From Cyanobacteria bacterium auto_48_18 (GTDB lineage Bacteria > Cyanobacteriota > Vampirovibrionia > Obscuribacterales > Obscuribacteraceae): a stretch of 64,000 nt of DNA. Every line of letters begins with the position of its first letter. The stretch's first letter is position 1. Location: positions 49,492 to 113,491 of the forward strand of contig JAVHQC010000034.1 of assembly GCA_036170915.1 (NCBI GenBank), in the 5' to 3' direction. Of the stretch, positions 15,301 through 35,338 are shown piece after piece. Made by a program: the position numbers and the translations under genes. The notes beneath the pieces are model-generated. The model did not search any database. It was given only the letters and a program-made list of their open reading frames with translations, and was not told where the DNA came from.

Positions 15301-15885
15301 GTCTTAATGGATTGTCAGATGCCGGATCTTGACGGTTTTGACACTACGCGGGCGCTGCGAAAGATAGAAGCAGCTACTGGTGCACATATGCCAGTCATTG
15401 CTATGACTGCCCATGCCATCGAGGGCAGCCGTGAGCAGTGTCTGGCAGCGGGAATGGATGATTTCTTGAGCAAACCAATTGATTCTGCTCGTCTGCAAAC
15501 AATAATAGAAAAGTGGCTGCCCTTGAATTCGGTTCAAGACAAGCTAAAAGGCAATCATTCTGGGCTGCCAGATGTTCGAGAGACATTGCAATCTAAATTT
15601 GGTGCTCACGCTCTCGAACTTTTTGATATGTGTTTACGAGACATACCTGTCTTATTGGAAAATTTGAGAATAGCGGTGAGCGCAAAAGGTATCACTGAAG
15701 TGAAAAGCTTCGCTCACGATTTGAAAGGCATTTCTGGCACAGTTTGCGCTTATGAAATGCACAAGTCTTGTAGCGATATTGAGTTAGCGTCGGGAGATGC
15801 CGACTGGCAAAAAGTAAACTTGCTGGTAGATCGACTTGAAAATCAGTTTGCTACCCTAAAACAATCGCCACCAGTATTAAAGTAA
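12301..15885 (+). CDS. Hybrid sensor histidine kinase (multi-TM, 2x PAS, HisKA, HATPase, 2x REC, Hpt)
   Basis: SHEIRTPMNG, NLVGNAIKF, DTGVG, GTGLGL, VDQMMP, MDCQMP, AHDLKG. Confidence 0.95.
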   Translation: MSRLMERAEIALEPNALLLMQRCSTVAAVVATLIGFVVLVAWVGSISSLLFQTAGYATMKANTAFCIVLCGCASLAAPKVKPLSQFLFLLAGILGLLSLVEHCTQWNLGIDHLLAYDNKYQLAGSRPGLMSPSTASCLIAISLAQGLFSSREKGGAVSTGLVLATFIAGLFSLIMHLYNVPNVFSVQPFTQVAVPTAIALMLLSVSALCAHPRRAPVAILISNTAGGLASRRLIPVCIVLPVLLGWLRAKGEEQGYYPFEFGTSLLILSMIVLLSGLIWWVADTLTREDAAEKLSTALKASEAKYLSVMETATDAIFSTDRSGAIVFANSATASMFGYSVDELAGCSLPMLITDEPKHPLNSSLPAQSVKAFGKRKNGTLFPVELSIGPSRDGGAEANHGTITYIARDTTQRKQAEIALQEHQELTQAILESANDAFIAIDETGLIVDWNDKATETFGWTREEALGRKLEETVLPVQHHEAHSLRMQELISNGVNATGNQRIESSSMHKNGHEFPVEVSIFPVRTSIGTTVCAFIHDITERRKSELSVQAARDEALRASRFKTNFVATMSHEIRTPMNGILGLTEILLLTNLNDKQRDYATTIQIAGNSLLTVINDVLDFSKMEAGKLFLEVSDFEPIKLVESVAELLTASASEKQLSLLTFIDPNLPLSMKGDRGRLRQILMNLVGNAIKFSEHGEILIRASLEKTANSNQLMFAVTDTGVGLSEEEMSSLFTPFVQLEGSKAQAGTGLGLSISKRLTELMKGEIGVFSEKGSGATFWFSVPFEQASAANIRERVRSDVADARILVVDDEQLARDVLYDYLVSWEMRPTVANGGKSALRMLRSANDADPYSVVIVDQMMPDLDGIELGQIIRQDVLLKKVKLVLLTSFDQPGMSEEALKIGFDAYLTKPIKQAQLLDAIATVLSNEHEANLTAMVAEQLKQNLTTIPPIMRDELILVVDDHKINQQVALLLLGALGYEVHIASSGRQALEFIQRVPYTMVLMDCQMPDLDGFDTTRALRKIEAATGAHMPVIAMTAHAIEGSREQCLAAGMDDFLSKPIDSARLQTIIEKWLPLNSVQDKLKGNHSGLPDVRETLQSKFGAHALELFDMCLRDIPVLLENLRIAVSAKGITEVKSFAHDLKGISGTVCAYEMHKSCSDIELASGDADWQKVNLLVDRLENQFATLKQSPPVLK

Positions 15886-15937
15886 TTGCGAGCCGATGAA
15901 ATCGCGGCTTAAATTACACAGCAAAGTACGTATCAAA

Positions 15938-18900
15938 TTACACCTTGGGTGCCGGCTCATGTTTCTCGTTTATTAGTTTATAAACTGAGGGTAGCACTAA
16001 CAGAGTTAAGAGAGTGCTTGAGATTAGTCCGCCCAGAATGACAGTGGCTAGCGGCCTCTGTACTTCCGCGCCTGTGCCTGAAGAAAATACCTTCGGAAGC
16101 AGTCCTACCGTGGCAACTAAAGCCGTCATTAGCACCGGCCGCAAGCGAATCAGCGCGCCTTTGACCACGGCTTCGGCAATCGGCCACCCGGCTTTTTCCA
16201 TCTGCATAATATAGCTAACAAGAATTACGCCGTTTTGCACGGCCACGCCAAACAGAGCGATAAAGCCGATTAGAGCTGGTACAGACAAAGTTTGGTGCGA
16301 AATTAAGAGTCCGAGAATGCCGCCGATCATAGCAAAGGGCACATTCATCATAATAAGGCCAGCGTTGCGGAGCGAACCAAACGAGGCAAACAAAAGTATA
16401 AATATCAATAAGAGCACGATCGGTACAACGATGGCCAGGCGAGCCATTGCTCTTTGCTGGTTTTCAAACTGTCCGGCCCAAACCACTTTGTAGCCTTTGG
16501 GAATAACCACATTTTGCTCTACTTTCTTTTGTGCTTCAGCCACAAAACTGCCCAGGTCGCGACCGCGCACATTTGACAAAACCGCTGTGCGACGAATGCC
16601 ATCTTCGCGATTCAATGTCACACAGCCGCGCTCAAGAGTAATATCGGCAAGCGTTTTAAGCGGCACTTTGCCACCATCAGGAGTATCAATGATCATCGAC
16701 TCAATTTGTTGTCTGCTGTCTCTATAATCGAGTGGAAAACGGACAAGCACGCCAAATCTCTGAGTGCCTTCTATCACTTCAGTCACCTGCCGACCGGCAA
16801 GAGCGGTTTGCACTGTATCTAATACGTCGTCTGTATTAAGGCCGTAGCGAGCCAATGTGCGGCGCTTCAATCGAATCTTGAGCTGGGGCAAACCGAGCAA
16901 TTGCTCTCGCTGCAAATCCGCTACTCCAGGAACTTGAGATATCTGGCCCTTTATATCGTTGGCTAGGTTGTTTAAGGTAATTGGGTCATCACCGAAAATT
17001 TTGACGCCCAGATCAGCTCGTATACCTGCCACCAGATCGTCAATCATGTCGGCAATTGGTTGAGAAAAACTGAACGTCAAACCTGGTATGCCCTTTAATT
17101 TCGCGGCCATCAGATCTACTAATCGGTCTTTGCTCTGGGTGGTTTTCCACTGCGATCGCGGCTTCAAAGAAATAAACACGTCGCTCGACTCGACTCCGTC
17201 TAATCCTGGTCCTGTGCCGGATCTGCCTGTGCGAGAAACTACATTTACAACCTCGGGAAATTGCATAATTGTCTCTTCAATAGCGGTGGCAATTCCCCTC
17301 GAGTTACTGTGTGCAATACTTGCTGCCAGTTTTGTGCGCAAAAGAATGGGCCCTTCATCTAGAGAAGGAATAAATTCAGAGCCCAAAAAAGGCACCACAG
17401 CCAGTGTGCACAATAGAGCAGCAACTGCGGTAACAATAATCGTGCGTGGGCGTGCTACTGCTGTCTTTAAGGCGGGTAGGTACACTCTGCTAACAAAGCT
17501 CAGAACTTTGTTCTCGCGTTCTACCAGAGGCTTGCGCATGGTCCAATAGCAAAGCACCGGAATGACAGTCAGCGCGCAAAGAAGCGAGCCTGCCAGCGCA
17601 TAAATAAAGGTCAGCGCCAGCGGATGGAACATCTTCCCTTCCACACCTTCTAAAGTGAACAGCGGAAGGTAAACAGCAATAATAATGGCAATAGCAAAGA
17701 CAATTGGCCGACCAACTTCGATAGCGGCATGGGCAATAACCTTTAAAGTACTGCGATCATCAAGTTCATTTTCTTTGCGCTCGGCCAGATGCCTGAAAAT
17801 GTTCTCAACCATGACCACGCCGGCGTCAACAATGATGCCAAAGTCAACTGCACCTAAAGTCATGAGATTGGCTGTCAGACCAGTATATTTCATCAAAATG
17901 AAACTAAATAATAGTGACAGCGGAATAATTACTGAGACTATTAATGCGCTGGGAATGTGCAGCAGCATAGCTGTCAAAATAATGATAACCAGTGCACCAC
18001 TGAAGCCCAATATTTCTTTGACAGTTTCGATGGTTTTTTCTACTAAGTCGGTTTGGTCATAGAATGGAACTATCTTTACGCCGCGCGGTAAGTCCGCCTG
18101 AATTTCGTGAACTTTTTCTCTGACTCGCTCTACTACTTGTTTGGTATTTACGCCCTTGCGGGTCAATACGATGCCGGTGACACACTCGCCGCGTCCAATA
18201 CGTGAAGCCGATCCACGGCGAAATGCCGGACCAATTTCTACCGTTGCTACGCGTTCAATGGTGACTGGAACACCCTTTACAGATTTGAGTACGATATTGC
18301 GAATATCGTCTATCTGCTCAATGCGACCCATGCCGCGAATAATTACTTCTTCGCCGGCATTTTCGATAAAATTGCCGCCGGCATTAGCATTGTTTGTCTC
18401 TAGTGCACTGGTGACATCGTTTAAGCTCAAGTTGTAACCACGAAGCTTATACGGGTCCACTTGTACCTGATATTGCTTAACGTATCCGCCATAAGTTGAA
18501 ACGTTGGCGACCCCAGGCACTGACTTTAGTCGCCTGGATATGGTCCAGTCTTGCAAGGTGCGCAAGGCGGTGTGGTCTAAAGTATTTGACTCAAGGTAAT
18601 ACATATAGACGTTGCTGAAGCTCGAAACCACTGGCCCTAAAATGGGCCGCGGACAGCCAGCTGGTAGCAATTGCTCTGATTGCAAAAGACGTTGCTGGAT
18701 TAAATTGCGGGCAAAATAAACATCGGTATCATCATCAAAGATGGCTGTTACAACCGAAAGGCCAAAGCTTGAACTTGAGCGAATTTTCTTAACTTTGGGC
18801 AAGCCATTGAGTGTGTTTTCAATGGGAAACGTAACCAGAGATTCAACCTCTTCAGTAGCCATACTTTCAGGCTCAGTAATAATCTGAACTTGAACATTAC

Positions 18901-19027
18901 TGACATCTGGAAAGGAGTCAACGGGCAAGCTGAGCATTGACCATATGCCAAACATGGCCAGACCGATTGCTGTAGCTATTGTTAAAAGCCTTTGATTTAA
19001 GGCAAAAGTTATTAGTTTTTCGATCAA
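15938..19027 (-). CDS. CusA/CzcA family heavy-metal efflux RND permease (copy 2)
   Basis: PVDSFPDVSNVQVQ, LGAVDFGIIVDAGVVMVEN, EGKMFHPLA, RLRPVLMTA. Confidence 0.95.
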   Translation of the reverse strand: MIEKLITFALNQRLLTIATAIGLAMFGIWSMLSLPVDSFPDVSNVQVQIITEPESMATEEVESLVTFPIENTLNGLPKVKKIRSSSSFGLSVVTAIFDDDTDVYFARNLIQQRLLQSEQLLPAGCPRPILGPVVSSFSNVYMYYLESNTLDHTALRTLQDWTISRRLKSVPGVANVSTYGGYVKQYQVQVDPYKLRGYNLSLNDVTSALETNNANAGGNFIENAGEEVIIRGMGRIEQIDDIRNIVLKSVKGVPVTIERVATVEIGPAFRRGSASRIGRGECVTGIVLTRKGVNTKQVVERVREKVHEIQADLPRGVKIVPFYDQTDLVEKTIETVKEILGFSGALVIIILTAMLLHIPSALIVSVIIPLSLLFSFILMKYTGLTANLMTLGAVDFGIIVDAGVVMVENIFRHLAERKENELDDRSTLKVIAHAAIEVGRPIVFAIAIIIAVYLPLFTLEGVEGKMFHPLALTFIYALAGSLLCALTVIPVLCYWTMRKPLVERENKVLSFVSRVYLPALKTAVARPRTIIVTAVAALLCTLAVVPFLGSEFIPSLDEGPILLRTKLAASIAHSNSRGIATAIEETIMQFPEVVNVVSRTGRSGTGPGLDGVESSDVFISLKPRSQWKTTQSKDRLVDLMAAKLKGIPGLTFSFSQPIADMIDDLVAGIRADLGVKIFGDDPITLNNLANDIKGQISQVPGVADLQREQLLGLPQLKIRLKRRTLARYGLNTDDVLDTVQTALAGRQVTEVIEGTQRFGVLVRFPLDYRDSRQQIESMIIDTPDGGKVPLKTLADITLERGCVTLNREDGIRRTAVLSNVRGRDLGSFVAEAQKKVEQNVVIPKGYKVVWAGQFENQQRAMARLAIVVPIVLLLIFILLFASFGSLRNAGLIMMNVPFAMIGGILGLLISHQTLSVPALIGFIALFGVAVQNGVILVSYIMQMEKAGWPIAEAVVKGALIRLRPVLMTALVATVGLLPKVFSSGTGAEVQRPLATVILGGLISSTLLTLLVLPSVYKLINEKHEPAPKV

Positions 19028-19126
19028 ACGAAAGATTCCTGAAAGAGAGACGTGGTGCGGTTTTCAGCACTATTGAAAACTGCTGAAGTTATCTCTATCA
19101 ATAGCATACTTGGAGCAGAAGTTGGG

Positions 19127-20350
19127 TTACTGAGTAGCTCGCTGCAAAGATTCGCCCAGTAGTTGAAGGCTGCCATTCACCACCACTTTGTCATGAGGAT
19201 GCAGGCCGCTCAAAATTTCAACGTAACCACCAGTGGTGCGGCCGGGACTGACTTTCTTTTCCAAATAAGTATCACCTGGACCGTCAACATAAACTAAATA
19301 AGTCTCACCGGCTTTTTGCAGTGACGGTTCAGGCACCATTAAGGCCGTGGTGGCACCCACTTGCACCGACATGCGCGCAAACATTTCTGGCTTTAGTCTT
19401 TGGGCTTGATTATCAATTGTTACTCGCACTGCCATGGTTCTTGTCTGGGCGTCTACTTTTGAATCGACAAAATCAAGCACACCAGGGAATTTTTCATCAG
19501 GCAAACTGTCTACGAGAACCGTCACCGGCATGCCTTTCCTGACAAAACGCAAATTATTTTCCAGCACATTTGCTTTCAGCCAAACTTTAGATAGATCCGA
19601 GACCGAAAAAAGTGCTTTGCCGCCTTCAACTAATTCGCCCGGGTCGCAGTCTCTTTCAGTAATTATTCCTGAGCGCGGTGCAGTAATATCGAACACCAGT
19701 TGAATGTGCCGGCTTTTCACCACGCTATCGACCAGTGTCGGCGACGTACCGTAAAGGCGCAAGCGTTCTTTACTCGAAATAATCAGAGTCTGTTGCTTTT
19801 CGTCGGTGGCCAGAACTTCTTCTTTTGCTTGCTCGAGATCGCTTTCGGCCTGATCGACATCTGCCTTGGCTGCGATTTGCTCTTCCAGCAATTTATTTTT
19901 GCGCTCAAATACTTTCTGCGCCAGGGCAACCTTTAGTGTAGCGTGTCGCCTTTCTGACTTTAACTCGAGCAATTTGGTCAATAAATCACTTTGTATTTGA
20001 GCAATTTCATCACTGCGAATTTTTGCTAGCACCTGCCCCATTTTTACGTGGTCGCCAGGTTGCACCAGCACTTCTTCGATGCGCCCTGGTGTGAGTGATA
20101 TCACGGGCGTGCTCAGGTTTGTGTTGGCGAGCACCGTGCCGGCTGCTTCGCAAACAATTGGCAATGTTTTTACCGCCACCACTTCGGTAGTGATACCAAT
20201 CTTTCTTTGCTGGGTTTTCGATAACGCAATGGGGTCACTGGGGCTAGCAGCGTGGGTTGCGGGAGCGTCGCCATGCTTCAGCACCGCGGCTGTGTCAGTG
20301 GCACTGCAACCGGTCAAAAAGAGAAAACTAAATAGCAAAAGTTTTTTCAT
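19127..20350 (-). CDS. RND efflux periplasmic adaptor (CzcB/CusB-like), lipoprotein
   Basis: Lipobox LTGC; lipoyl/hairpin GRIEEV...GDHVKMGQ, ITAPRSG; TRTMAVR, LKPEMF. Confidence 0.92.
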   Translation of the reverse strand: MKKLLLFSFLFLTGCSATDTAAVLKHGDAPATHAASPSDPIALSKTQQRKIGITTEVVAVKTLPIVCEAAGTVLANTNLSTPVISLTPGRIEEVLVQPGDHVKMGQVLAKIRSDEIAQIQSDLLTKLLELKSERRHATLKVALAQKVFERKNKLLEEQIAAKADVDQAESDLEQAKEEVLATDEKQQTLIISSKERLRLYGTSPTLVDSVVKSRHIQLVFDITAPRSGIITERDCDPGELVEGGKALFSVSDLSKVWLKANVLENNLRFVRKGMPVTVLVDSLPDEKFPGVLDFVDSKVDAQTRTMAVRVTIDNQAQRLKPEMFARMSVQVGATTALMVPEPSLQKAGETYLVYVDGPGDTYLEKKVSPGRTTGGYVEILSGLHPHDKVVVNGSLQLLGESLQRATQ

Positions 20351-23300
20351 AGTTTTTTTGATTCTTCTTGTTCTACTACGACTAACTCTTCTACTGCTTT
20401 AATTTCTTTCGCCGCTTGTTCTTGCTCTTGGTGTTCCAAAAACTCTCTCACTTTCTGTGGCCTGCCGGGGCTAGGGCGGAATTTTAAATAAAGAGCGGGC
20501 AGTACATATAATGTCAAAAGTGTGCAAGACATTAGCCCTCCGATTATCACGATAGCAAAGGGTTTTTGTGTTTGCGAGCCAATTTCGTTTGACAGGGCAG
20601 CCGGCAGCAGTCCGACTGCTGCAATAGTAGCAGTCATCAACACCGGTCGCATACGGGTGATTGAGCCATGATAGACAGCGTCTTTTATAGACATGCCCTG
20701 ATGGCGCAGTTCGTTGACAAAAGATACGAGCAAAATGCCATTTTTTACAGCCAGACCAAACAGTGCAATCAAGCCGACTCCGGCAGAAATTGAGAAATAT
20801 GTGCCGGTTAAATTGAGGGCGAATACCGCGCCAATAGCGGCCAGTGGCACTACTGAGAACATAATTACAGCGCCCCCAAGGGTGCCGCAAGCTATATATA
20901 AGATGGTAATGATGATTGCAAGCGTAATTGGCAATACCATTGTCAGCTGGTGGGCAGCTTCGCGTTGTCTTTGAAATTCTCCTGTCCACTGCACGTGATA
21001 GCCATGGGGCAATTTGACTTCCTTTTCCACCCGCTTCTGTGCTTCTTCAACGGCGGTAGCCAGGTCGCGACCTCGCACATTGGCGCGAATGGTGCCCATG
21101 CGCGAGCCGGCATCGCGCCAAATTTGACTGGCACCGTTGACTTCAGTCAAAGTGGCCAGTTGCGCCAGTGAAACGGTGGCGCCCGACGGTGTATCTACCA
21201 GCACATTATGCAGAGCGTCTTCAGTGTTGCGATATTTTGGTGCCAGTCTGACAATAACTTCAAAGCGTTTCTCACCTTCAATCACAGAAGTCGCCGGCGA
21301 GCCACCAATGGCAATTTCGGTGAGCGATTTTAAATCGGCTTCGTTGAGGCCAAATCGCGCCGCTTCAGCTCTATCAATTTCAATGACAAATTGCGGCTGA
21401 CCTAAGAGCGGGTCAACGATAACGTCCACAATTCCAGGAGTCTCAGACATAATGGTGCCCGTGTGCTGGGCCAGTTTTTCAAGCTCTGCCAGGTTCGGCC
21501 CTGTTACTTTTGCCACTAGAGAGCCCTGTACTCCTGAAAGGGCCTCGTCTAGCGTGGTCTGAATATATTGAGTGAAATAATATCCAACCCCCGGAATTTG
21601 CTCCAGATCTTTGCGCATTGCGGCAATCAATAATTCTTTGTTTTCTTTGAATATGGGGCGCCATTCTTTTGCCGCTTTCAAATCAACATAATATTCCTGG
21701 TCGGCAAAACGCGCCGGATCAGTACCGTCATCTGGCCCGCCCACTTGCGAGAGCACCTGTTTGACTTCGGGGTAGCGCAATAGTGTTTCGCGAATTTCAG
21801 CTGCGTTTTTGACTGATTGGTCTAAAGTGACGCTACCTGGTTTGATGGTGGCCCTGAGCCAGATATTGCCTTCTTCTAAATGCGGAAGAAACTCGCTGCC
21901 TGTATGTAAAAACATATTGGCAGCGATGCCCACTGCCACTAACGATGAAAGGATAACCGGCAGCGGGTGCTTCAGGCACCAGGTCAAAGTTGGCTTGTAG
22001 AGCGCTTTAGCACCAGTCACAATTGGGCTTTGCCGCTCAATTAAAGGCTTTTTGATCAAGGAAAACGAAGCCAGCACGGGCACCAGAGCCAGTGCCAGAA
22101 GGCCGGCACCAATCAGAGCCGATACCATGGTGGCGGCCAGTGGGCGGAATAACTTTCCTTCCACGCCACTGAAAGTAAAAATGGGTAAGAACGTAGCGAC
22201 AATGACCACGATGCCAAATACGATTGGGCCCGCTACTTCTCTGGCTGAATCAGTCAATATCAGTAGCCTTTGTGCGGGTGTTTTATCTTGACCTTCTTCT
22301 GATAGTCGCCTGATGATATTTTCTGTCATCACCACGGCACTATCTACAAGAATGCCAAAATCGATTGCTCCTAAACTGAGCAGATTGGCCGGTACGCCGA
22401 GCAAACATAATGCGATAAAGGCGGCCAGCATCGACAGGGGAATGACGCAGGCAGTAATAATTGCCGAGCGCAAATCAACCAGAAATATAGCCAGTAAGAC
22501 AACAACGAGAGTGATACCAATAGTGACATTGGTACCAACAGTGGTGAGCGTTTGATTAATTAGCCACTCGCGGTCGTACAACGTTGTCAGCTTCACCCCT
22601 GGTGGCAGAGTGGCTCTGATATCAGGCAGGCGCTCTTTAATTGCCTGCAGCACACGGGTAGGATTTTCGCCCCGGCGCAGAAGCACAATGCCTTCCACGC
22701 AGTCGTCTTCAGTGCCGTGACCGGCCTGCCCGCGCCTGACCATGGGGCCAATTTCAACATCGGCCACATCGCGCAGCTTAATTGGAATGCCGCCTGCAGT
22801 TGACTCAATGGTGACGTTGCGCAAATCTTCTTCGTCTTTAATCAAACCTATTTGGCGCACAATTAAAGCGCTGCCGTTGTGTTCGATAAAACCACCGCCT
22901 GTGGTGGCATTGCAATGTTCTACGGTGTCAAAAACTTGTTTTAGGGTAATGCCGCGAGCCCGCAGTTTGAGCGGGTCTACGTTGACCTGGTAGGTTTTAG
23001 TCGGCCCGCCTTCGCTGACGATGCCGATTACCCCAGGAATCTGGCGGAAGAGTTTTTCCAGATCCCACTGTTGAATGGCCCTCAGGCCCATGGGTGAAAC
23101 ATATGGGCTGGAGAGCGAATAGCGAAATATTTCCCTCAATGAGCCTACATCTGGTTCTAAAGTGGGTTCCACGTCAGGTGGAATATTGGCCTGTTGAATG
23201 CGCTCAAGTACTTGCTGTCTGGCAAATGCAGTGGTGGTGCCATCTGTATAGGTCGAAATAATTACCGACAAGCCATAAAGCGAGAGCGACCGCAGAGCCG

Positions 23301-23547
23301 TTTGACCAGGGATGCCGTACATTTCCTTTTCAAGCGGAATTGTCACCAGGCGCTCCACTTCTTCTGAGCCTTTGCCCGGAACAAGAGAAATTACCCGCAC
23401 TTGAGGGTTGGAGAGTTCTGGATAAGCTTCAATGGGCAAGGCCTTCCAGGCAAAAATGCCACCTAAAATCAATATTAGGGCGCCAATCAACGTGAAATAG
23501 CGTCCTTTCAGGGCCGCTGTGATAAATGTGTCGATAGGTGACTGCAA
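20347..23547 (-). CDS. CusA/CzcA family heavy-metal efflux RND permease (copy 1)
   Basis: PIEAYPE, LGAIDFGILVDSAVVMTEN, EGKLFRPLA, RMRPVLMTA; 4-nt overlap with the adaptor gene. Confidence 0.95.
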   Translation of the reverse strand: MQSPIDTFITAALKGRYFTLIGALILILGGIFAWKALPIEAYPELSNPQVRVISLVPGKGSEEVERLVTIPLEKEMYGIPGQTALRSLSLYGLSVIISTYTDGTTTAFARQQVLERIQQANIPPDVEPTLEPDVGSLREIFRYSLSSPYVSPMGLRAIQQWDLEKLFRQIPGVIGIVSEGGPTKTYQVNVDPLKLRARGITLKQVFDTVEHCNATTGGGFIEHNGSALIVRQIGLIKDEEDLRNVTIESTAGGIPIKLRDVADVEIGPMVRRGQAGHGTEDDCVEGIVLLRRGENPTRVLQAIKERLPDIRATLPPGVKLTTLYDREWLINQTLTTVGTNVTIGITLVVVLLAIFLVDLRSAIITACVIPLSMLAAFIALCLLGVPANLLSLGAIDFGILVDSAVVMTENIIRRLSEEGQDKTPAQRLLILTDSAREVAGPIVFGIVVIVATFLPIFTFSGVEGKLFRPLAATMVSALIGAGLLALALVPVLASFSLIKKPLIERQSPIVTGAKALYKPTLTWCLKHPLPVILSSLVAVGIAANMFLHTGSEFLPHLEEGNIWLRATIKPGSVTLDQSVKNAAEIRETLLRYPEVKQVLSQVGGPDDGTDPARFADQEYYVDLKAAKEWRPIFKENKELLIAAMRKDLEQIPGVGYYFTQYIQTTLDEALSGVQGSLVAKVTGPNLAELEKLAQHTGTIMSETPGIVDVIVDPLLGQPQFVIEIDRAEAARFGLNEADLKSLTEIAIGGSPATSVIEGEKRFEVIVRLAPKYRNTEDALHNVLVDTPSGATVSLAQLATLTEVNGASQIWRDAGSRMGTIRANVRGRDLATAVEEAQKRVEKEVKLPHGYHVQWTGEFQRQREAAHQLTMVLPITLAIIITILYIACGTLGGAVIMFSVVPLAAIGAVFALNLTGTYFSISAGVGLIALFGLAVKNGILLVSFVNELRHQGMSIKDAVYHGSITRMRPVLMTATIAAVGLLPAALSNEIGSQTQKPFAIVIIGGLMSCTLLTLYVLPALYLKFRPSPGRPQKVREFLEHQEQEQAAKEIKAVEELVVVEQEESKKL

Positions 23548-23738
23548 AGAAAGTTACTCAGTTCGAGCAGTTAACTCGGTAGTAGAACATAGAAAATTGT
23601 ACAGCTGAAGTCGCCGAACCTTTCGCCAAACTTTCGAAATGTAAGGTCTGATGGTTTCAAAGTGCGCTGTACACTCCTGCTTACCCCACCTGGCGCTATA
23701 ATGTAGGCGTCTTCAGCTCTGAAGCGCCGGGCCTATAA

Positions 23739-26333
23739 ATGTCAGACCTCGATTTAACTAAATATGCCAATTCGGTGGGCCTGGTCTATGACTTGAGTCT
23801 GCCGGTGCGTTATCCGCTGGCCGCCGTCTGGCAGGTAGACGCCGAAACCGTGGTCACTTGCGCCCACTCGGTGATTCTCTACTCTAATATTCTTAAAGCC
23901 CTGCGGGTGCGCTTTCCTACCAGCGGCCGTGAATATTCGGTCAAATCGGTGGTTTACCACGCCAAAGTAGACAAAGCCATTCTCAAAACCATGGCCAAGC
24001 AAGGTCTCACCGACCCGGTGAATGGTTTGCCTCTGCAAAAGCATAATGTCGCTTTGCTTAAACTGTCGCCCAATGTTGAAGAGCTCAGGCCTGAAGAAGT
24101 CGAAGAAATAAATGATTCGTTTGAGCGCTTTTTGCCTGAGCACGAACCAGGTCTTGGTGGCAGTCTGGCCGAAATAGAATTGCCTCTTGTCGTGCAGACA
24201 ATTACCAACGCGCGCAAAACAGGCACCGTCTCAATTTTAGACGAGCGCAATCGAGTGGTGGGCAAGCTTTTCTGCCGCAACGGCCGCGCTACTCACGCCT
24301 ACTATTTCAACCTGATTAACGAAAATGCCATCTATCAAATAATCATGCATCGCCTCACCGGCAGCTTCTATTTCACATCAGAAGAGGCTCCCGATTGGAC
24401 TACCGTTGCTGAGATTTCCCGCCCCATAGATATGCTCTTAATTGAGTCGCTGCGCCGCTCTGACGAACTAGAAAAAATGTCGTCCATTGTGGGCGGCCCT
24501 TCGAGTTTGTTTGTCAGAGTCACTCCGCAACCAAACTATGACATTTTGCCACCTGACGCTCGCGAAGCCACCAAATTGCTGTGGCCACTTTTAGATGGTG
24601 GCACTCCCCTTGGTTTGATGTGGCAAATTGCTGGTGTTGATGATTATGCAATTTATTCTGCCATGCAGGAGTTGGTGAAGACCCGCCAGGTAAGCTACTT
24701 TGAAGCACCCTTTGTTAAGGGTGGTGGCGAGATGGTGCCTCTCATGCTCGGGGTGCAAACACCGCTTTCGCCAAACGATCTGGTCACTGCTTTATGGGTA
24801 GAAGATTCTTCTTTGGCACCACTAATTCGCCCCGGCACTTTGCTCGGCAGTGTTAAAGATTTAGACCCGTCACATGTATTGCACAATATCGGTTTGCCCT
24901 TTGAAGCGGCCGGCTGTCCTATTTTCAAAGATGGTGGCGTGATCGGCATTCATTGCGGCACCGTTCCTCCTGACCCTGCTGTTGTCACTCCTGATGGTGG
25001 CTTCCATCAGATGATCTGGGTGGAGCAAGTAGTGGAATGTCTGAGAGATGCAGGCAATGGCGAACTGGTAAAGAAACTTACGCTGAGCGGCGAAGATACA
25101 CCAGAAGCCGCAGCCAAGGCAGGTTGCCGTCAGGTTGCCCGCATTCAGTGTCCTAAATGCGGACGCTCGTCTATGGACGAACCTAATTTTTGCAAGGGCT
25201 GTGGGCAGCGGTTGATTCAAGATTCTGACTATAAAGGGCCGATTGGAAAACGATTGACCAGTCTGACAAAAGCTAAAACCAAGATGATTGGTAAAACGAA
25301 AGTGAACGCTGGTCCGCGTATCATCAAAACCGAAGCCAGCGGCCAGCGGGTCAACCCTGTGCTCCTGGCGATTGTGCTCACACTGATTTTTGTTGGTGGT
25401 GGGGCGGCTTGTATGGCCATGATTCCACGCCCCAATTTTATTAGCGCCACCCCGGTGAAGTGCGCTGACGCGGGTAAAGCCTGGCTGGCCACGGCTTTGA
25501 TTGAGTTTCAGGGGCCTAAAGACTTCAGACGCGACGACAATTATGTGCTCAATGGGCCGGCCCAGTTCAGTATCGGCATTCTGCCCAAGCGCCCCTGCTA
25601 CCTTTATGCCTTTACTTTGCAAAATTCAGGTCGGGTAAATCTGCATAGCCCCACTACTGCGGCTCAAGACGTTATTCTTGATCAGGGTGTGACTTACCTG
25701 CTTAAAAGCGATGGCCTGGAGCGCACGCCCCTTTCGCAGCAGCACATTACTTTCTTCGGCTGTGAAAATACTGACGGCGTAGAAAAGTTTGTTCTTGTGG
25801 CTAGCGGCATGAAGAGTGCCATTCTGGGCATGAAAGACCCTGCCGCCCAAGAAAAAGCAATCAAGCAATTTGTCACTCAGGCCGACCAGTTGGCCAGCTG
25901 CAACGAGCATGAAGGCGGCGTTATTGTGCACGCCAGAGGCCTGGGCGAGCAGTTCTTCGAACAAGCGCCCGCCGGGTCGCACCTTGGTGTTAACGGTCTG
26001 ATGGGCAAAGATGTTTACATATGTGTGGTGGAGGTAAGGCATAAAAAGGATGCCAGTCTCGACAATCAAGAACCCAGCGAACAGGCTTCTAAGCAAACCT
26101 TGCCAAAGCCTGAGACACTGAAGCCAGCGGCTAGTGTCGAGGCACCAACACCTGTGGCTCAACCGCCTGGACAACCCCAAGCACAAACTCAAGGACAACC
26201 GCAAGCCAAGCCTGAGACACCCAAAACCGATGGTACGGCGCCGGTTCAGGCTCCTTCGAGCTCACCGGAAACTCCTCCTAATAAGGAGCCGACTATAGAT
26301 AGTACGAAAGCTGGGCCAACAGCAGAGACCTAA
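23739..26333 (+). CDS. Membrane protein: split inactive trypsin-like domain with DUF4388 insert, zinc ribbon, TM, DUF4384-like domain, Pro/Gln tail
   Basis: VVTCAHSV; HNVALLKL; GSLAEIELPLVVQTITNARKTG; EAAGCPIFKDGGVIGIH; CPKC...CKGC; TM LLAIVLTLIFVGGGAAC; CYLYAFT..SGRVNLHSP. Confidence 0.7.
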   Translation: MSDLDLTKYANSVGLVYDLSLPVRYPLAAVWQVDAETVVTCAHSVILYSNILKALRVRFPTSGREYSVKSVVYHAKVDKAILKTMAKQGLTDPVNGLPLQKHNVALLKLSPNVEELRPEEVEEINDSFERFLPEHEPGLGGSLAEIELPLVVQTITNARKTGTVSILDERNRVVGKLFCRNGRATHAYYFNLINENAIYQIIMHRLTGSFYFTSEEAPDWTTVAEISRPIDMLLIESLRRSDELEKMSSIVGGPSSLFVRVTPQPNYDILPPDAREATKLLWPLLDGGTPLGLMWQIAGVDDYAIYSAMQELVKTRQVSYFEAPFVKGGGEMVPLMLGVQTPLSPNDLVTALWVEDSSLAPLIRPGTLLGSVKDLDPSHVLHNIGLPFEAAGCPIFKDGGVIGIHCGTVPPDPAVVTPDGGFHQMIWVEQVVECLRDAGNGELVKKLTLSGEDTPEAAAKAGCRQVARIQCPKCGRSSMDEPNFCKGCGQRLIQDSDYKGPIGKRLTSLTKAKTKMIGKTKVNAGPRIIKTEASGQRVNPVLLAIVLTLIFVGGGAACMAMIPRPNFISATPVKCADAGKAWLATALIEFQGPKDFRRDDNYVLNGPAQFSIGILPKRPCYLYAFTLQNSGRVNLHSPTTAAQDVILDQGVTYLLKSDGLERTPLSQQHITFFGCENTDGVEKFVLVASGMKSAILGMKDPAAQEKAIKQFVTQADQLASCNEHEGGVIVHARGLGEQFFEQAPAGSHLGVNGLMGKDVYICVVEVRHKKDASLDNQEPSEQASKQTLPKPETLKPAASVEAPTPVAQPPGQPQAQTQGQPQAKPETPKTDGTAPVQAPSSSPETPPNKEPTIDSTKAGPTAET

Positions 26334-26407
26334 AATCACTAAACCACCCTAATTTCTTTTTGGCCAGGGTAGGGCAAGAGTAATCGGTAAGGACGAAGGA
26401 GAAGAAA

Positions 26408-27319
26408 ATGAACGCGCTTGAACTAATCAGAAAATCTTGCGCACTTTCGCTGGCTGCGGCACTTGGTTTGGCAATAACCTCTGGTGCTTTTGCTGAGGAA
26501 GTGGGCGGAGCGAAGGGTCTATTCTTCGAACAACTGGAAAAACCGACCCAGTCTCTTAACACCGGTATCAGTTACTCAATTGAACTCAAGCGCGACGGAC
26601 ATCTGTCTAAAGTCAGCAACAAGCAGCAATTTAGAAAAGGCGATAGCATTCGCTTTCATGTGCGCTCGAACATTGATGGCTATTCATATATTTTGCTTTC
26701 CAGCGGAAGCCGCGGTGAATCATCGGTGCTTTTCCCCAACGAAAGTAGTCGCGAAGACAATCACGTAGAACGGGGTAGAACCTACGTTTTACCTACAGAC
26801 GGCTACCTTACTTTTGACGAAAATCCAGGCTTAGAGAAGCTGACATTGTTGCTTTCTCGCACTACCATGGACGCCCAGGCCTATCTTGCTAAGCCACAAA
26901 AAGAAGTAACGATGATTGCCTCCGCTCAGACAGGCAGCAAAGATCTGGTGCCAGCGAGAATCTATGTTTCTTACAATGCACCGAAAGTAGAAGCGCCAGT
27001 ATTTTTGCCGGCAACAACTAGCACGACTACAAATAATCCGGCGAAGAAAACTGTAGTTAGAGAAACCACTAAAAAGATTGAGCGTGTAGAAAAAGTTGAG
27101 AAGATTGCCGTACGCAACAACAACAACAACGATGACGACGACAAACCAAAAGCTGTGAAAAAGCCTGTTGTTAAAAAGCACGTGACAACAGCTTCTTCCA
27201 GTACATCGAGTTCGAGTCGTCACTCTGCTCCTGCTTCAGATGACGAAGGAACAGTAACAGTGGTGTCACAACAATCAAGTGGTGTGCTTCACGTAGATGT
27301 AGCTCTGCAGCACATTTAG
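26408..27319 (+). CDS. Secreted DUF4384 domain protein
   Basis: GGAG SD; signal peptide ending AFA; FRKGDSIRFHVRSNIDGYSYI...VLFPN...FDENPGLEKL. Confidence 0.85.
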   Translation: MNALELIRKSCALSLAAALGLAITSGAFAEEVGGAKGLFFEQLEKPTQSLNTGISYSIELKRDGHLSKVSNKQQFRKGDSIRFHVRSNIDGYSYILLSSGSRGESSVLFPNESSREDNHVERGRTYVLPTDGYLTFDENPGLEKLTLLLSRTTMDAQAYLAKPQKEVTMIASAQTGSKDLVPARIYVSYNAPKVEAPVFLPATTSTTTNNPAKKTVVRETTKKIERVEKVEKIAVRNNNNNDDDDKPKAVKKPVVKKHVTTASSSTSSSSRHSAPASDDEGTVTVVSQQSSGVLHVDVALQHI

Positions 27320-27385: not shown

Positions 27386-27429
27386 GCGGAAAGGGGCTAT
27401 TACAAGCTCCTTTCCGTTGTATTATTTGT
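27386..27429 (+). terminator. Probable intrinsic terminator
   Basis: GCGGAAAGGGGCT-attaca-AGCTCCTTTCCGT followed by a U-rich tract. Confidence 0.55.
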
Positions 27430-27964: not shown

Positions 27965-28438
27965 TCAGTGATGATCGCTGGGGTGCACAGTAGACAGGTG
28001 CACTGATATCTTGTCGCTTTCCACGCCGACGATACCAACATATTGTTCAATAAAGTTTTTCACCTGGCCAGGCCCAACCTCTCCATCGAGAGTGTAGGTG
28101 CCGTGATCGAGCGGCTTGCTGTCAAAATCATAAGTGTCATAGGTAACAGTAACGTCTTTAATCGGCACATTGTTGTAGTTGGCTACGCGTATCCAACAGA
28201 CCGGGCAATTGATTACCCAGAGGCCCGAAATGTGCCAATCGACTAGCTCAACGCGAGTGTTGGCCGTGAGCTCACGGTCACCTGGTTCGGGGGTGCAACC
28301 AGTGACGGTGACTGATAGAGTGAGCAGAAAAGTAATGAGAAGTAGAGCGGCACAAAACATCGAACAGTTGAAAACAGCTCTGGCAGTGACTGCGCCTTGG
28401 AGCTTAATGCCAAATGGGGGACGCCTTGCTAGTGACAT
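27965..28438 (-). CDS. Putative lipoprotein with Ig-like (FxLYD-like) domain
   Basis: Hydrophobic stretch ending VTGC; IRVAN.NNVPIKDVTV.Y..YD...GEVGPGQVKNF; start uncertain. Confidence 0.6.
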   Translation of the reverse strand: MSLARRPPFGIKLQGAVTARAVFNCSMFCAALLLITFLLTLSVTVTGCTPEPGDRELTANTRVELVDWHISGLWVINCPVCWIRVANYNNVPIKDVTVTYDTYDFDSKPLDHGTYTLDGEVGPGQVKNFIEQYVGIVGVESDKISVHLSTVHPSDHH

Positions 28439-28643
28439 AAGCCGCTCAGCTTTGAACCTCGTCTCAGTTAATAAGACTGGGAAGTAAATCCACGCCGGGC
28501 ATATTCTGTGCAATACCCAATAGAATGAGTACAGCAAAGACTAAGAACAGGCCAAAAAATGCTGGTTCGCCTTCGGATAACATTTCGCTGACTCGACAAG
28601 GTAATGGGATAGTCTGATTATATCAGTTGTAAGTGGGTACGCT

Positions 28644-29825
28644 GTGAAGGAATCGTTAGGAAAATTCAGACCAGCAGTGGGGTTAGCAAATGCTCACCTT
28701 ATGACATTGGCACCACTGGCGATTCGGCGCCATTTTCCGCTCACAGACTGCTCTAGCGAGCAGCACATAGTCGAAGTAGATGAACAAAACAAAGTTATTG
28801 TTTGTTTGCATCTCGCCGAAAGTCTGAGCAAAAAAGTTCCCAATTTTACTGCTGCGCTTCCCAATCTTGACCTGTCGAAAGTGTTGGTGCTGCTGGTTCA
28901 TGGGCTCGAGGGTTCTGCTGAGTCGACCTATGTTAAAGGTGTTTGTGAGAAGTCGCTCAGCCTCGGCATGAGTGTTTGCCGGCTCAATTTGCGCAACTGT
29001 GGTGACAGCTTGCATCTGGCTCAGGGCCTTTATAACGCTGGCATGAGTGCTGATGCCATTGCTGTAGCAAAACATTTAAAAGCACAATTTGGCTTTTCAC
29101 AAATTTTTCTTTGTGGCTTTTCACTAGGCGGAAATATCGTTCTCAAAGCGGCTGGTGAGCTCGGTCGAGAACTCGGCAGGGCCTTGGGTAAAGACGAGGT
29201 TAAGAACGAGAGCAAGAACGAGAGCAAAGAGTTGAGTTCAGAGACAATGGCAAAAGTGATTGATGGAGTTTGCGCAGTTTGTCCTCCGATAGATTTGCAC
29301 CAGTGCGTAGGCGCCATTGAGCGGCGAGGCAATCGCCTTTACGAACATGGTTTTCTTGGGAGTCTAAAAGAAAAAATTCGCGCTAAAAATCGATTGTTTC
29401 CCGGGCGGTTTGATGTAGACCGGCTGGCGGCCATATCTTCACTGCGTGCATTTGATAATACTTACACCGCTTTCGACGCCGGTTATGAGAGTGCTGATGC
29501 TTATTATCACGGTGCCAGCGCACTGCGGGTGATGCCCTATATCAATGTTCCAACGCTGGTGGTTGCTGCAGCGGATGATCCACTTGTACCAATAGAGAGT
29601 TTTCGCTGTGATGAACTGGCAGGTAACGTCAATGTCAAACTGGTCACGCCTGAGAAGGGTGGGCATGTGGCTTTTATCAGTGATAAGAATATTGCCCTTC
29701 AAGATCTTGTGCATGAATGGGATAGAGAGCACGAGCCTGGTCCTAACCAACAGCTAAAAGATCGTTTCTGGGGCGAATGGCAGGTAGTGCAATTTATACT
29801 GGCCGTGGCCACCGGTCGCCACTAG
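28644..29825 (+). CDS. Alpha/beta hydrolase, YheT family
   Basis: HGLEGS, NLRNCG, GFSLGGN, DDPLV, GGHVAF. Confidence 0.9.
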   Translation: MKESLGKFRPAVGLANAHLMTLAPLAIRRHFPLTDCSSEQHIVEVDEQNKVIVCLHLAESLSKKVPNFTAALPNLDLSKVLVLLVHGLEGSAESTYVKGVCEKSLSLGMSVCRLNLRNCGDSLHLAQGLYNAGMSADAIAVAKHLKAQFGFSQIFLCGFSLGGNIVLKAAGELGRELGRALGKDEVKNESKNESKELSSETMAKVIDGVCAVCPPIDLHQCVGAIERRGNRLYEHGFLGSLKEKIRAKNRLFPGRFDVDRLAAISSLRAFDNTYTAFDAGYESADAYYHGASALRVMPYINVPTLVVAAADDPLVPIESFRCDELAGNVNVKLVTPEKGGHVAFISDKNIALQDLVHEWDREHEPGPNQQLKDRFWGEWQVVQFILAVATGRH

Positions 29826-30207
29826 TAGCCTGGCAATTTCTGGCAACAGTTATGAAACTGTGTGCTCAGCAAAAAACTGCCATATCTCTGTGCCAAGATC
29901 AGGTTATGGATTTACAGACTGATCATAAAGGTAAATGCTAAGAGCAAAAACTAGTTGGGATTTTTAGCAGGCATCAAATATGGTGGCAAGACAAAGGCCT
30001 GACCCATGGTCGAATTATCATCATGTTTGCTCAGTGTTGGAAACTGATTAGAGTTGTTCACGTTACTGTTGAGTTTTGCATGTCAACATGAAAGAATTAT
30101 CTTTGCATGTGTGGTCTTGGCGACCTTTTTTGACCAAAATTTTTAGTCGATGCATATCAGTCGTCAAGTGTATGGGTTTTACTATTTGGGTTTCAAGGAG
30201 GTTCGTT

Positions 30208-30606
30208 GTGAGAAAAGTTATGAGTCTGGCACTGGCTGCCCTGGCTGTGGTAGCAGTTGCTGCACCAGTTTTTGCTGCTGATGATGCTATGGACAAAGTT
30301 GTTGAAGGCGCTATGGTGCCTACCAGATTAGGTGGAGTAGCTGCTGGTGTGGTTGTCGGAACACCGATCGCCATCGTTCGTGAATCAGTTAAGTCTTACA
30401 AAGACATGACCGAAAAATGTGCAGACAAAGTCGGTGGACATGACTTCGGACCATCATGCTTGTTGGTTTCATTCGCTACATTGCCAGCCGGCCTGGTTGT
30501 AGGCGGCGTTAAAGGCACCTACTACGGTGTGAAAAATGGCGTTGTTGATGGTTTCCAAACACCATTCGCTTCTGATTCTTTCAGCCTGGGTAAAATGGAC
30601 GAATAA
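30208..30606 (+). CDS. Secreted hypothetical protein
   Basis: AAGGAGG SD before GTG 30208; signal peptide ending VFA. Confidence 0.75.
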   Translation: MRKVMSLALAALAVVAVAAPVFAADDAMDKVVEGAMVPTRLGGVAAGVVVGTPIAIVRESVKSYKDMTEKCADKVGGHDFGPSCLLVSFATLPAGLVVGGVKGTYYGVKNGVVDGFQTPFASDSFSLGKMDE

Positions 30607-33524: not shown

Positions 33525-35120
33525 TTATTGTGTCTGCGAGGCCTTAAATGCCACAACAGGTGCACCCGTTGCTTTCGACGACATCATCGCTTCTTTAGCG
33601 GTAGAGAGCATCATGCCAAGGTCGGTACAGTCTTCAGGAATGCCGGTGACACCAAAGGCGATGGCTAGATTGCGGCTGTCAATTTCGCCGCCAATTTTTT
33701 CATCCCACAAAACTTCAGTGATGCGTTTTGCCACCATTGTTGCTGCTTGCACATTGGTGTATGGCAGCATTAAGAGAAAACCAAAAGTTTCGAAGTGAGC
33801 AAGCACGTCAATATTGCGCTTGATTGTACCGATGCGCCTGGCCGCTTCTTTAATCATAGGCAACGGTAGCGGTTCAAGACCAACAGGAGTACGCACACGC
33901 ATTTCAAAAATTAATAAGCAAAATGGTGCGCCGGTATGCTCCCAGCGGAAGAATTCTTGTTCAAGGAAATACAAAATTACCGGATAGTTTATTAGGCCGG
34001 TTTCTTGCCTCATCATGTTCTTCATGCCGGCGTCAATGGCAGAGCGGTCTACACCCATGGCTTCGATGGGCTGCTGAGTGCGCACTTGCGTCGGTTTTTC
34101 AGTGACCGCAATTAAATCGGAGACAATTAAATTGTAGACCAGTGGTATCCATTCCACTTTATTGAACGGCATTTTGCGCAGAAGCTCAAATAGAGTGCTC
34201 TGATTGTCTATTAATTGATAAAACTCTTTCTGCTCACTCATATCGAGTCTGGCACCAGCCGCCATTCTTTGTTCGAAGTCAGCCTCGGTTAATTTCGGAT
34301 GTTTGCGCACAAAATAAGACGACATAGTGACGCCGCTTTGATGAATCACTCGATATTGATCAACTAATGGGGCGGCCTCGGCAATCAGGGCGTCGATACG
34401 CTTGGTGACAGTGCGCTCGCTTGAGCGGTCATTGGGAAAGAATGAAAATTTTCCTTTGTCCCAGGTCAAAACCTCCATGATCGCTGCTTCGCCTTTACAC
34501 TCGCTAGAAGCGGCGTGCAGCGGCTGACCATTTTCAAAAAATACATCAATGCCTTCGTCAACCTGGGTGACGCTGAGCATACCGGTCATTTTGCTGATCA
34601 CGATTGATTGCAAGACATTGGCCACAGTCATGTTAAGCAGATCGCCTTCCAGGGTGGCGTGGCGTTCGATTTCTTGGCTTTCAGTAAAAGCCGGGCGGCT
34701 GCGACGCGCCTCGCTTGCCGGTTCTGTGGCGACCGCTTTAATATTGCTGGCAGAGGCTTTCATGCCCCCGAAAGCCTCTAGCTGTTTGGCGGTCATATCG
34801 GTATCGTCACCAAGACATTCTCTGGTGAGCAGGTTTGTAATCAGGCCGATGTCACCTGACTGATAATTCCATCTGACTTCGCGAAATGCCCCGTCGCCGA
34901 TGATAAAGGTCCATTGTGGGTCACCACCATCTTTGTCGCAATTGACCGCCAGGGCACAATCTCGGCTCGGATTTTCAGCAATCCAGGGCAGCTCAACCGC
35001 TCGACCGAGATTTTTCTGAGCCTCTTGCAGGCAATGAAAAACGTCTTCATAGACGGGCACACCGTGCATTTTTGACAGACGGATGGGTGAGGCCGGTTGC
35101 GACTTTTGGGGTCTAAACAT
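33525..35120 (-). CDS. DUF4388 plus degenerate GGDEF domain protein
   Basis: LEGDLLNMTVANVLQSI...MTGML...FFENGQPLHA; ETGLIN...RNIDVLAHFETFGFLLMLPYT. Confidence 0.8.
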   Translation of the reverse strand: MFRPQKSQPASPIRLSKMHGVPVYEDVFHCLQEAQKNLGRAVELPWIAENPSRDCALAVNCDKDGGDPQWTFIIGDGAFREVRWNYQSGDIGLITNLLTRECLGDDTDMTAKQLEAFGGMKASASNIKAVATEPASEARRSRPAFTESQEIERHATLEGDLLNMTVANVLQSIVISKMTGMLSVTQVDEGIDVFFENGQPLHAASSECKGEAAIMEVLTWDKGKFSFFPNDRSSERTVTKRIDALIAEAAPLVDQYRVIHQSGVTMSSYFVRKHPKLTEADFEQRMAAGARLDMSEQKEFYQLIDNQSTLFELLRKMPFNKVEWIPLVYNLIVSDLIAVTEKPTQVRTQQPIEAMGVDRSAIDAGMKNMMRQETGLINYPVILYFLEQEFFRWEHTGAPFCLLIFEMRVRTPVGLEPLPLPMIKEAARRIGTIKRNIDVLAHFETFGFLLMLPYTNVQAATMVAKRITEVLWDEKIGGEIDSRNLAIAFGVTGIPEDCTDLGMMLSTAKEAMMSSKATGAPVVAFKASQTQ

Positions 35121-35338
35121 GTTTTTTGCTGCAGGGGCGAGGGGTGAGCTTAGTAACGCCTGATTCTTACTTCTCTATGCCCGGCTTTGAGTGAGCTGAA
35201 AACCTGGCGCACAATGATCGTCTAAAATGCCTGAAGTCTGATAATAGCGCTAAGCAGCGGCTCTTTTTGGGAAAGAGACCAATAGCGGCGCTATTAGAAA
35301 TATAGTAGGGCATTTAAGCAAAGCAATATAGGTTATTC

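Follow-up and report, generated by a model that had tools for sequence, protein, structure and literature searches.

What can a membrane protein do that has the fold of trypsin, has lost two of the three catalytic residues and carries a signalling module between the two halves of the fold? The question is raised by two adjacent genes, p1 and p2, at positions 23739..27319 of a 64,000-nt stretch of DNA (the window) from Cyanobacteria bacterium auto_48_18 (GCA_036170915.1, contig JAVHQC010000034.1, 49,492-113,491 of the forward strand; this genome is labelled G000). The p1 protein consists, in order, of a split pseudo-trypsin interrupted by a PATAN-winged helix-turn-helix (wHTH) module, a zinc ribbon, a transmembrane (TM) helix, a DUF4384-like ectodomain and a low-complexity tail, and p2 is a secreted DUF4384 protein. 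p1 is almost certainly a catalytically dead protease. That it is the dead subunit, acting as co-receptor or scaffold, of a protease/pseudo-protease receptor system of the order Obscuribacterales is in our judgement an even call. The features of p1 are listed here with the evidence for each in brackets.

23739..26333, + strand: p1, 864-aa one-pass membrane protein (open reading frame (ORF), Pfam, AlphaFold2 (AF2), fold match)
23739..24074, + strand: first trypsin barrel, aa 1-112 (AF2, fold match, profile comparison with the intact-triad type D proteins 99.7%)
24075..24728, + strand: inserted module, aa ~113-330 (Pfam, AF2, hhalign)
24741..25076, + strand: second trypsin barrel, aa 335-446 (AF2, fold match, residue counts)
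25149..25202, + strand: zinc ribbon CxxC...CxxC, aa 471-488 (motifs; Pfam below cut-off)
25359..25415, + strand: single TM helix, aa ~541-559 (hydrophobicity, Kyte-Doolittle 2.5)
25434..26063, + strand: extracytoplasmic DUF4384-like domain, aa 566-775 (Pfam below cut-off; hhalign)

The chymotrypsin fold (PA clan, family S1) consists of two six-stranded beta-barrels in one domain. In the AF2 model of p1 residues 1-500, computed from an alignment of 55 sequences, residues 1-443 form a single domain of this kind (predicted local distance difference test (pLDDT) score 87, predicted template modelling (pTM) score 0.86). A first-pass annotation, made from the letters of the window, had asked whether its two protease-like segments would model as one trypsin fold, and they do. 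In an unbiased comparison of the model with 48,161 chains, the best match to residues 1..443 is the S1C domain of RsgI9 (Z 18.7, root-mean-square deviation (rmsd) 2.9, 183 residues aligned), tied within 1 Z with V8 (Z 18.2) and DegS (Z 17.7), and 50 of 50 among the matches listed have a chymotrypsin-type fold. The best Foldseek rows are Esp and V8, and these alignments run over ~445 columns against targets of ~210 residues, so that they span the insert. The insert sits in the inter-barrel linker: the strand with the Asp site (105-110) precedes it, and behind it the second barrel opens with strand 348-354. A Pfam scan gave p1 neither a trypsin family match nor a PDZ domain, and the trypsin clusters found for residues 1-500 in the ESM Atlas (0.79-0.81) serve as a lead only. 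Judged by the model, p1 belongs by fold to PA clan S1.

Active S1 serine peptidases are defined by a His-Asp-Ser triad and a GDSG nucleophile/oxyanion motif. The three trypsin signature regions occur in p1 in order, with the Asp and Ser substitutions that the first-pass annotation had read there. VVTCAH (aa 38-43) retains His43 (codon 23865-23867), HNVALLKL (aa 102-109) has Asn103 (codon 24045-24047) in place of the catalytic Asp, and EAAGCPIF (aa 389-396) has Ala391 (codon 24909-24911) at the nucleophile site, with EAAG where GDSG is expected. In the adjoining GGVIGIH (aa 399-405), His405 is retained at the S1-pocket position 213. With His43-Asn103-Ala391 and EAAG, p1 is by its sequence not an active S1 peptidase.

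The same holds throughout the family, which was sorted with segment hidden Markov models into four types and partial sequences. Type A (118 distinct sequences) has the p1 arrangement of TM helix and DUF4384-like ectodomain; type B (19 proteins) is soluble, ~495 aa long and without a TM helix; type C (43, one of them in G000 at C16) has a TM helix and another ectodomain; and 25 inserted homologues are partial. Type D (35, one in G000 at C6) has no insert and reads trypsin-TM-DUF4384-like. A complete His-Asp-Ser triad is present in 0 of 205 inserted homologues versus 35 of 35 uninterrupted type D proteins, which also have GDSG. Among 120 further type D proteins 116 fit all three motif patterns, and the other 4 fit His and GDSG. 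Of the 118 type A proteins, 116 have Asn at the Asp site and 101 keep the catalytic His, and the Ser site is occupied by Ala (66), Ser (23), Thr (15), Cys (9) or other residues (5). Gly at the oxyanion position (193) is found in 3 of the 205 inserted homologues. Across these sequences catalytic loss is a family-wide trait. The expected conservation of both substitutions was borne out in part: no homologue has an intact triad and the Asn is fixed, and the Ser site is variable. An atypical active protease, with a His-Asn-Ser triad or a Cys nucleophile, would be compatible with the retention of His43 and with the His-Asn-Ser reading of 16 of the 118 type A sequences. This is scarcely credible given Ala at the nucleophile position of p1, a site that varies freely, the absence of GDSG from the listed motifs, Gly193 in 1 of 118 type A proteins and Cys393 in 18 of 55 aligned sequences. 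Two artefacts were also considered and rejected. Lineage-specific decay to a pseudogene is ruled out by the open frames and the fixed Asn across the order, and a frameshift or assembly chimera by the same architecture in 118 distinct trypsin-half sequences.

The type D protein of G000 (C6:204053-205408) is intact, with TCGH, FDA and GDSG. p1 aligns with type D over trypsin, TM helix and ectodomain (hhalign 99.7%). Type D scores above the Pfam cut-off for Trypsin_2, and the sole match of its profile among PDB sequences is of V8/Esp type and weak (E 0.023). In a quick tree of 110 rows, from which the 25 partial rows and near-duplicates were omitted, type D forms one side of a branch with 100% support; this tree is unrooted, has no outgroup, long branches and an unfinished search, and its type labels are mixed, so that it does not order the subtypes. 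The homology and the residue counts show the relationship of p1 to a D-like protein, and the direction from D to p1 follows from parsimony, the tree being unrooted. To our knowledge other chymotrypsin-type proteases are uninterrupted, and insertion and inactivation are therefore taken as the derived state. With a degenerate triad and an intact paralogue in the same genome, p1 conforms at the sequence level to the pattern of MamO, a pseudo-protease that is also among its fold matches (5hm9; Z 16.5, rmsd 3.1, 178 aligned). MamO-like pseudo-proteases are further characterised by activation of the paralogue and by metal binding at a surface di-His site. The likeness to MamO, and five residues (His74, His379, His382, His405 and Cys406) kept in 111-118 of 118 type A proteins, could point to a metal- or redox-binding pseudo-protease. 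The five are equally invariant in the 35 active type D proteins and so predate inactivation, which makes such a function very improbable. G000 has a second split pseudo-trypsin::PATAN paralogue (C16:140243-142885, 880 aa) that has lost His and Ser, keeps Asp and carries a different ectodomain. This C16 subtype alone is present in lineages without D and p1.

The insert had been annotated as a DUF4388 (PATAN-like) region of ~200 aa. The identification stands: DUF4388 (PF14332) covers p1 residues 141-244, from GSLAEIELP at aa 141 onwards, at E 3.6e-10 and 40.4 bits against a curated cut-off of 25. The size is corrected to ~220 aa, with a linker helix (118-129) in front and a wHTH-like part (258-320) behind, the latter named from its secondary structure and a weak MarR_2 match in a homologue. 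In cyclic nucleotide monophosphate (cNMP)-PATAN proteins of the order, the module follows a cNMP-binding domain. The hhalign match to these proteins (99.9%) covers p1 96-322 and includes the leading helix, which pairs with the final part of the cNMP domain. Because the same module follows the cNMP-binding domain in these proteins, the insert is on sequence grounds a mobile module. Against PDB sequences its profile gave designed coiled coils and weak rows, judged to be chance, and the Pfam scan of p1 had no receiver domain match at E <= 1. Eight further ORFs of G000 match the insert more weakly, including window 33528-35174 (- strand), and by eye six of the eight proteins end in a degenerate GGDEF-type-like domain. 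In 4 of 14 loci with a cNMP-PATAN-wHTH gene (L051, L057, L060 and L063), an MglA-like GTPase is encoded two genes away, on the far side of recG.

These findings allow p1 to be viewed as a cytoplasmic peptide sensor, in which a peptide (perhaps with Glu or Gln at P1) occupies the dead cleft, the helix relays its binding to PATAN as cNMP does, and TM helix and ectodomain serve for localisation. The alignment of the pre-PATAN helix with the cNMP-domain end is consistent with this, as are the soluble ~495-aa type B forms, which have neither TM helix nor p2 and keep His (17 of 19), Asn (18 of 19) and His405 (19 of 19). His405 aligns with V8 His213, an S1 residue of glutamyl endopeptidases according to the accessible text of PMC5508998. 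However, position 190 is Leu in p1 in place of the Thr/Ser of those enzymes, and His405 is kept in 115 of 118 type A and 35 of 35 active type D proteins alike and may be structural. The near-perfect linkage to p2 (below) moreover requires an extracytoplasmic role, and we regard a purely cytoplasmic sensor as improbable.

Behind the second barrel, CPKC (aa 471) and CKGC (aa 485) form the zinc ribbon, each Cys being kept in 54 of 55 aligned sequences; all zinc-ribbon Pfam matches are below cut-off. Lys and Arg are more frequent before than after the TM helix in 102 of 118 p1-type proteins, with 10 ties. By the positive-inside rule p1 is predicted to have its N-terminus inside and its protease part in the cytoplasm. 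DUF4384 (PF14326) scores 19.6 bits (E 0.00096) in the p1 ectodomain, under the 27-bit cut-off, and 28.4 bits in the homologue of L141. The hhalign match to the p2 family (97.6%, E 4.8e-12) makes the ectodomain, on profile comparison, a homologue of p2 despite the Pfam score. The zinc-ribbon motifs and the single TM helix stand where the first-pass annotation had placed them. The second gene and the end of the unit are located as follows.

26408..27319, + strand: p2, 303-aa secreted DUF4384 protein (ORF, Pfam, structure model)
27386..27417, + strand: terminator-like hairpin closing the two-gene unit (13 bp stem; the 120-nt region folds at z -3.8)

As previously annotated, p2 begins 74 nt downstream of p1, has an N-terminal hydrophobic segment (aa 1-29, signal-peptide-like from sequence) and contains DUF4384 (50.7 bits, above the 27-bit cut-off). 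The predicted hairpin was found as well; counted overall, terminator-like sites (7) do not exceed the chance expectation (4.8 +/- 2.3). The p2 model is an immunoglobulin (Ig)-like sandwich whose closing strands (aa 283-302) come after a disordered linker of ~90 aa, which accounts for the mean pLDDT of 60.6. Fold comparison gave generic Ig-like sandwiches (best Z 8.3, filamin), so that no specific fold relative emerges. Foldseek gave nothing at E <= 0.001, and the p2 profile has no match among PDB sequences at E <= 10. NCBIfam assigned 0 families to 8 proteins.

Conservation of the gene pair speaks for a joint function. In loci L071-L140, p2 is directly downstream in 50 of 50 complete A-type loci and in 0 of 11 soluble B-type loci; the count leaves out eight fragments at contig edges and one locus with a frameshift. 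Across a sample of 107 Obscuribacterales genomes, at an orthologue cut-off of E <= 1e-80 that was chosen after the scores were known, the A ectodomain and p2 occur together in 73, the ectodomain alone in 3, p2 alone in 0 and neither in 31, some of which have weaker p2 paralogues. In the 73 genomes p2 is downstream in 68, upstream within 6 kb in 4 and on another contig in 1. The co-conservation on which the earlier proposal had been made to depend is therefore present. It is very likely that p1 and p2 function together, and direct binding of p2 by the p1 ectodomain appears somewhat probable. Control through DUF4384-DUF4384 pairing, as first proposed, would draw on gene linkage only.

The genus g2 allows a different interpretation of the pair. 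All 6 of its genomes have a p1-like ectodomain in a short ORF (271 aa) next to p2, and at L065 and L066 a TM-ectodomain remnant of 257 aa lies with p2 at the syntenic place, the cytoplasmic part being wholly missing. The ectodomain pair can therefore persist without the pseudo-protease. The p1 ectodomain and p2 may then build an Ig-domain envelope or pilus-accessory assembly, which the cytoplasmic part anchors or positions with no transmembrane signal. The generic Ig-like sandwich of p2, with its last strand on a long linker, would suit strand exchange, and TadE/TadG-like pseudopilin genes (by eye, with no NCBIfam match) stand beside or inside pseudo-protease/p2 clusters of one subclade at L150, L156, L163, L165 and L179. 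However, the cytoplasmic part is much better conserved than the ectodomain: the invariant columns of type A1 all lie in residues 141-427, and column identity is 28% for the p1 ectodomain (52% for p2). DUF4384 also follows signalling proteins, namely kinases (10.1101/2025.01.12.632604) and the anti-sigma-like Csx30 (10.1101/2022.08.17.504292), in the parts of these preprints that are accessible. A scaffold of this kind is unlikely, if less so than the cytoplasmic sensor.

Type D has a partner gene of its own. A different secreted DUF4384 gene stands right behind D in 19 of 20 loci, the 20th being near a contig end, and 'receptor plus secreted DUF4384' would accordingly be the ancestral unit, as far as gene order tells. 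In G000 the type D gene has no secreted DUF4384 gene behind it. D, a p2-type gene and the pseudo-protease follow one another on one strand at L141/L162, L161 (with D in two frames and extra genes), L163 and L164, and at the metagenome loci L142, L143 and L156. This cluster is divergent from a sigma-like gene with helix-hairpin-helix (HhH) repeats and a conserved unknown gene, and where the locus is long enough it continues into a Zn-ribbon gene and a kinase. It occurs in 4 of the 6 best-scoring genomes of one A subclade. In the fifth, D lies ~15 kb off on the same contig, and in the sixth a trypsin-less TM-ectodomain ORF, judged by eye, takes the place of D in the cluster. Of the 107 genomes 88 have D, among them 68 of the 73 that carry p2. 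The five p2-bearing genomes without D are 65-88% complete, and genera g4, g5, g8 and g17 have neither. The HhH-repeat protein is divergent from D in 20 of 20 D loci and has a sigma-70 lead (Atlas 0.88) with no Pfam or NCBIfam sigma match. Anti-sigma receptors of the RsgI/Csx30 type have their cognate sigma factor encoded alongside, and no such gene recurs next to the main p1-type loci. The D neighbourhood (L031-L050, L141; G000:C6:205974-210795) further holds, likewise divergent from D, an unknown protein of ~410 aa (19 of 20), a TM protein with two Zn ribbons and a Ser/Thr kinase with a Zn ribbon. The HhH-repeat protein and these neighbours are candidate substrates or outputs of D.

From these observations the following mechanism may be proposed. 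The ancestor would have been a type D protein, with an intact cytoplasmic trypsin-like protease, one TM helix, an outer DUF4384-like Ig domain and a secreted DUF4384 partner. p1 would have arisen from it by insertion of helix-PATAN-wHTH between the barrels, gain of the zinc ribbon and loss of Asp, Ser and GDSG. As a dedicated extracytoplasmic partner, p2 probably clusters or bridges receptor ectodomains; the linkage is observed and the binding presumed. The dead cleft, with His43 and the S1 residue His405, would hold a peptide or partner uncut, and the linker helix would couple it to PATAN as a protein-interaction output. p1 would then activate, restrain or feed substrate to type D, in the manner of MamO and MamE. 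We rate the chance that p1 works with type D at somewhat below even. The existence of this paralogue with an intact triad shifts the likely role of p1 from the lone scaffold of the first-pass annotation, whose dead protease stands, to that of a regulatory counterpart of an active receptor protease. Besides type D, the likeliest cytoplasmic partners would be proteins bound by PATAN, for instance those of pili or cell polarity. G000 encodes two MshEN-domain genes and one MglA homologue; an output of p1 to pili or polarity is nonetheless doubtful. Equally tentative is the full, ligand-controlled scheme: one-pass receptors would be joined by a secreted DUF4384 protein of Ig-like fold, a cytoplasmic trypsin-type serine protease would be their output, and the split pseudo-protease would serve as obligate co-receptor, controlling the active subunit and signalling through its nested PATAN.

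Several observations weigh against a p1-p2-D system. In most genomes, including G000, D is at a separate locus unlinked to A; its secreted DUF4384 partner there differs from p2, and 20 genomes have D without a p2 orthologue. The joint cluster is confined to one subclade and may be a single event; at least two of the three metagenome contigs that have it resemble the four genomes concerned. p2-like proteins adjoin other systems as well (alpha/beta hydrolase-DUF4384). No pilus-motor or mglA gene is found among the recurrent neighbours of p1-type loci. The post hoc orthologue cut-off and the ectodomain remnants of g2 belong here too, and the genomes and loci counted are kin and hence non-independent.

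The split fold, in any subtype, is present in 106 of the 107 Obscuribacterales genomes, whereas the class's other orders, sampled with 118 genomes, gave 0 matches. A phylum sample of 300 genomes gave 11 that match, over the PATAN part only. In a profile search of 1.84 billion representatives, 122 proteins match at E <= 1e-30, and the 150 matches listed, which come without taxonomy, can be sorted by their length and the span matched into the subtypes given above. Most named homologues and record titles point to Obscuribacterales or Melainabacteria, and a few bear other, unchecked labels. Within the samples searched, the split fold is found only in Obscuribacterales.

DUF4384 genes occur in other arrangements as well. 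At L070 (4183-8501) and L179 (481-3803), three to four genes for secreted DUF4384 proteins are clustered with no trypsin receptor linked to them. At G000:C6:101041-104580 and G000:C12:8145-11671, a gene for a secreted alpha/beta-hydrolase-like protein with a C-terminal p2-like DUF4384 stands before one for a caspase-like/TPR protein. The catalytic Cys region of the latter seems degenerate by eye, so that this is a second pseudo-protease plus DUF4384 theme in G000. In the window, a tRNA-Arg (11924-11996) is separated from p1 by ~11.6 kb (11924-23600) encoding, by eye, a hybrid histidine kinase, two RND-type transporters and a membrane-fusion protein. This segment is missing in the relatives L075 and L081, where the tRNA is 1.4 kb and 0.3 kb before p1, and is therefore probably a recent insertion. 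The surroundings of p1-p2 are otherwise syntenous, with a DUF429 gene upstream (4075-4947; 52 loci) and a lipoprotein-like gene, an alpha/beta hydrolase and a small secreted protein downstream (27965-30606; 41-43 loci each). Since these genes differ in their direction of transcription, the arrangement is more suggestive of chromosomal synteny than of a function in common.

The locus offers a clear example from nature of a chymotrypsin fold that has taken up a signalling module of 220 residues, with fixed catalytic loss, and the intact ancestor type is still in the same genomes, so that this evolution of a pseudo-enzyme is directly testable. DUF4384, which has no solved relative by sequence, gains a concrete and testable role in a receptor/ligand pair, and cytoplasmic trypsin-type proteases are pointed to as receptor outputs. 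The split fold is also a near-universal marker of an uncultured, cyanobacteria-related and non-photosynthetic order in which signalling has received little study. The size of every part would permit expression and assay in a laboratory host. The component domains, bacterial pseudo-trypsins and one-pass signalling proteins with pseudo-enzymes are known already. Searches of open-access literature gave no description of the nested architecture, of a receptor family with proteases and pseudo-proteases or of secreted DUF4384 partners; supplementary domain tables of surveys could list the architecture.

p1 is classed neither as an active S1 peptidase nor as an HtrA protein nor as a PatA regulator, since it lacks a defining trait of each. 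V8 and Esp, its best Foldseek matches, share the His213 position with it, whereas they and HtrA/DegS are active, extracytoplasmic and uninterrupted, and HtrA/DegS have a PDZ domain. PATAN/DUF4388 is common to p1 and to PatA-type PATAN-REC regulators (PixE, PixG, LsiR). In the accessible parts of the sources, PATAN alone binds PilB1/PilC in Synechocystis and reverses phototaxis (10.1101/2021.06.11.447907), and PATAN genes occur near mglA/B (PMC4316618). PatA-type regulators are defined by a C-terminal receiver domain; p1 is a membrane protein with no receiver domain, and another fold encloses its PATAN. Fusions of DUF4384 to proteases are frequent, and Csx30 has it as one of its C-terminal types (10.1101/2022.08.17.504292). 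A C-terminal DUF4384-like domain is shared with the Csx30 anti-sigma of type III-E CRISPR, with Proteo1 Ser/Thr kinases and with some orthocaspases (PMC7475262), for which the accessible sections describe no secreted DUF4384 partner, trypsin receptor or pseudo-protease. In RsgI9 of Clostridium thermocellum (7sjy), a one-pass signalling protein likewise employs a protease-like domain, S1C, for binding (PMC12203970, in part); that domain is an extracellular sensor, whereas the one in p1 is predicted to be cytoplasmic and is interrupted. A close parallel is found in Magnetospirillum, where the degenerate trypsin MamO is the activator of its paralogue, MamE (PMC4794232, in part). Both systems pair a trypsin-fold pseudo-protease with an active paralogue. 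p1 differs in its predicted cytoplasmic protease fold, split by PATAN, and in its zinc ribbon and DUF4384-like ectodomain; no magnetosome context is seen for it, and activation of D by p1 would be an analogy. The receptor-protease reading, if true, would be the protease counterpart of kinase/pseudokinase receptor pairs, an undescribed class.

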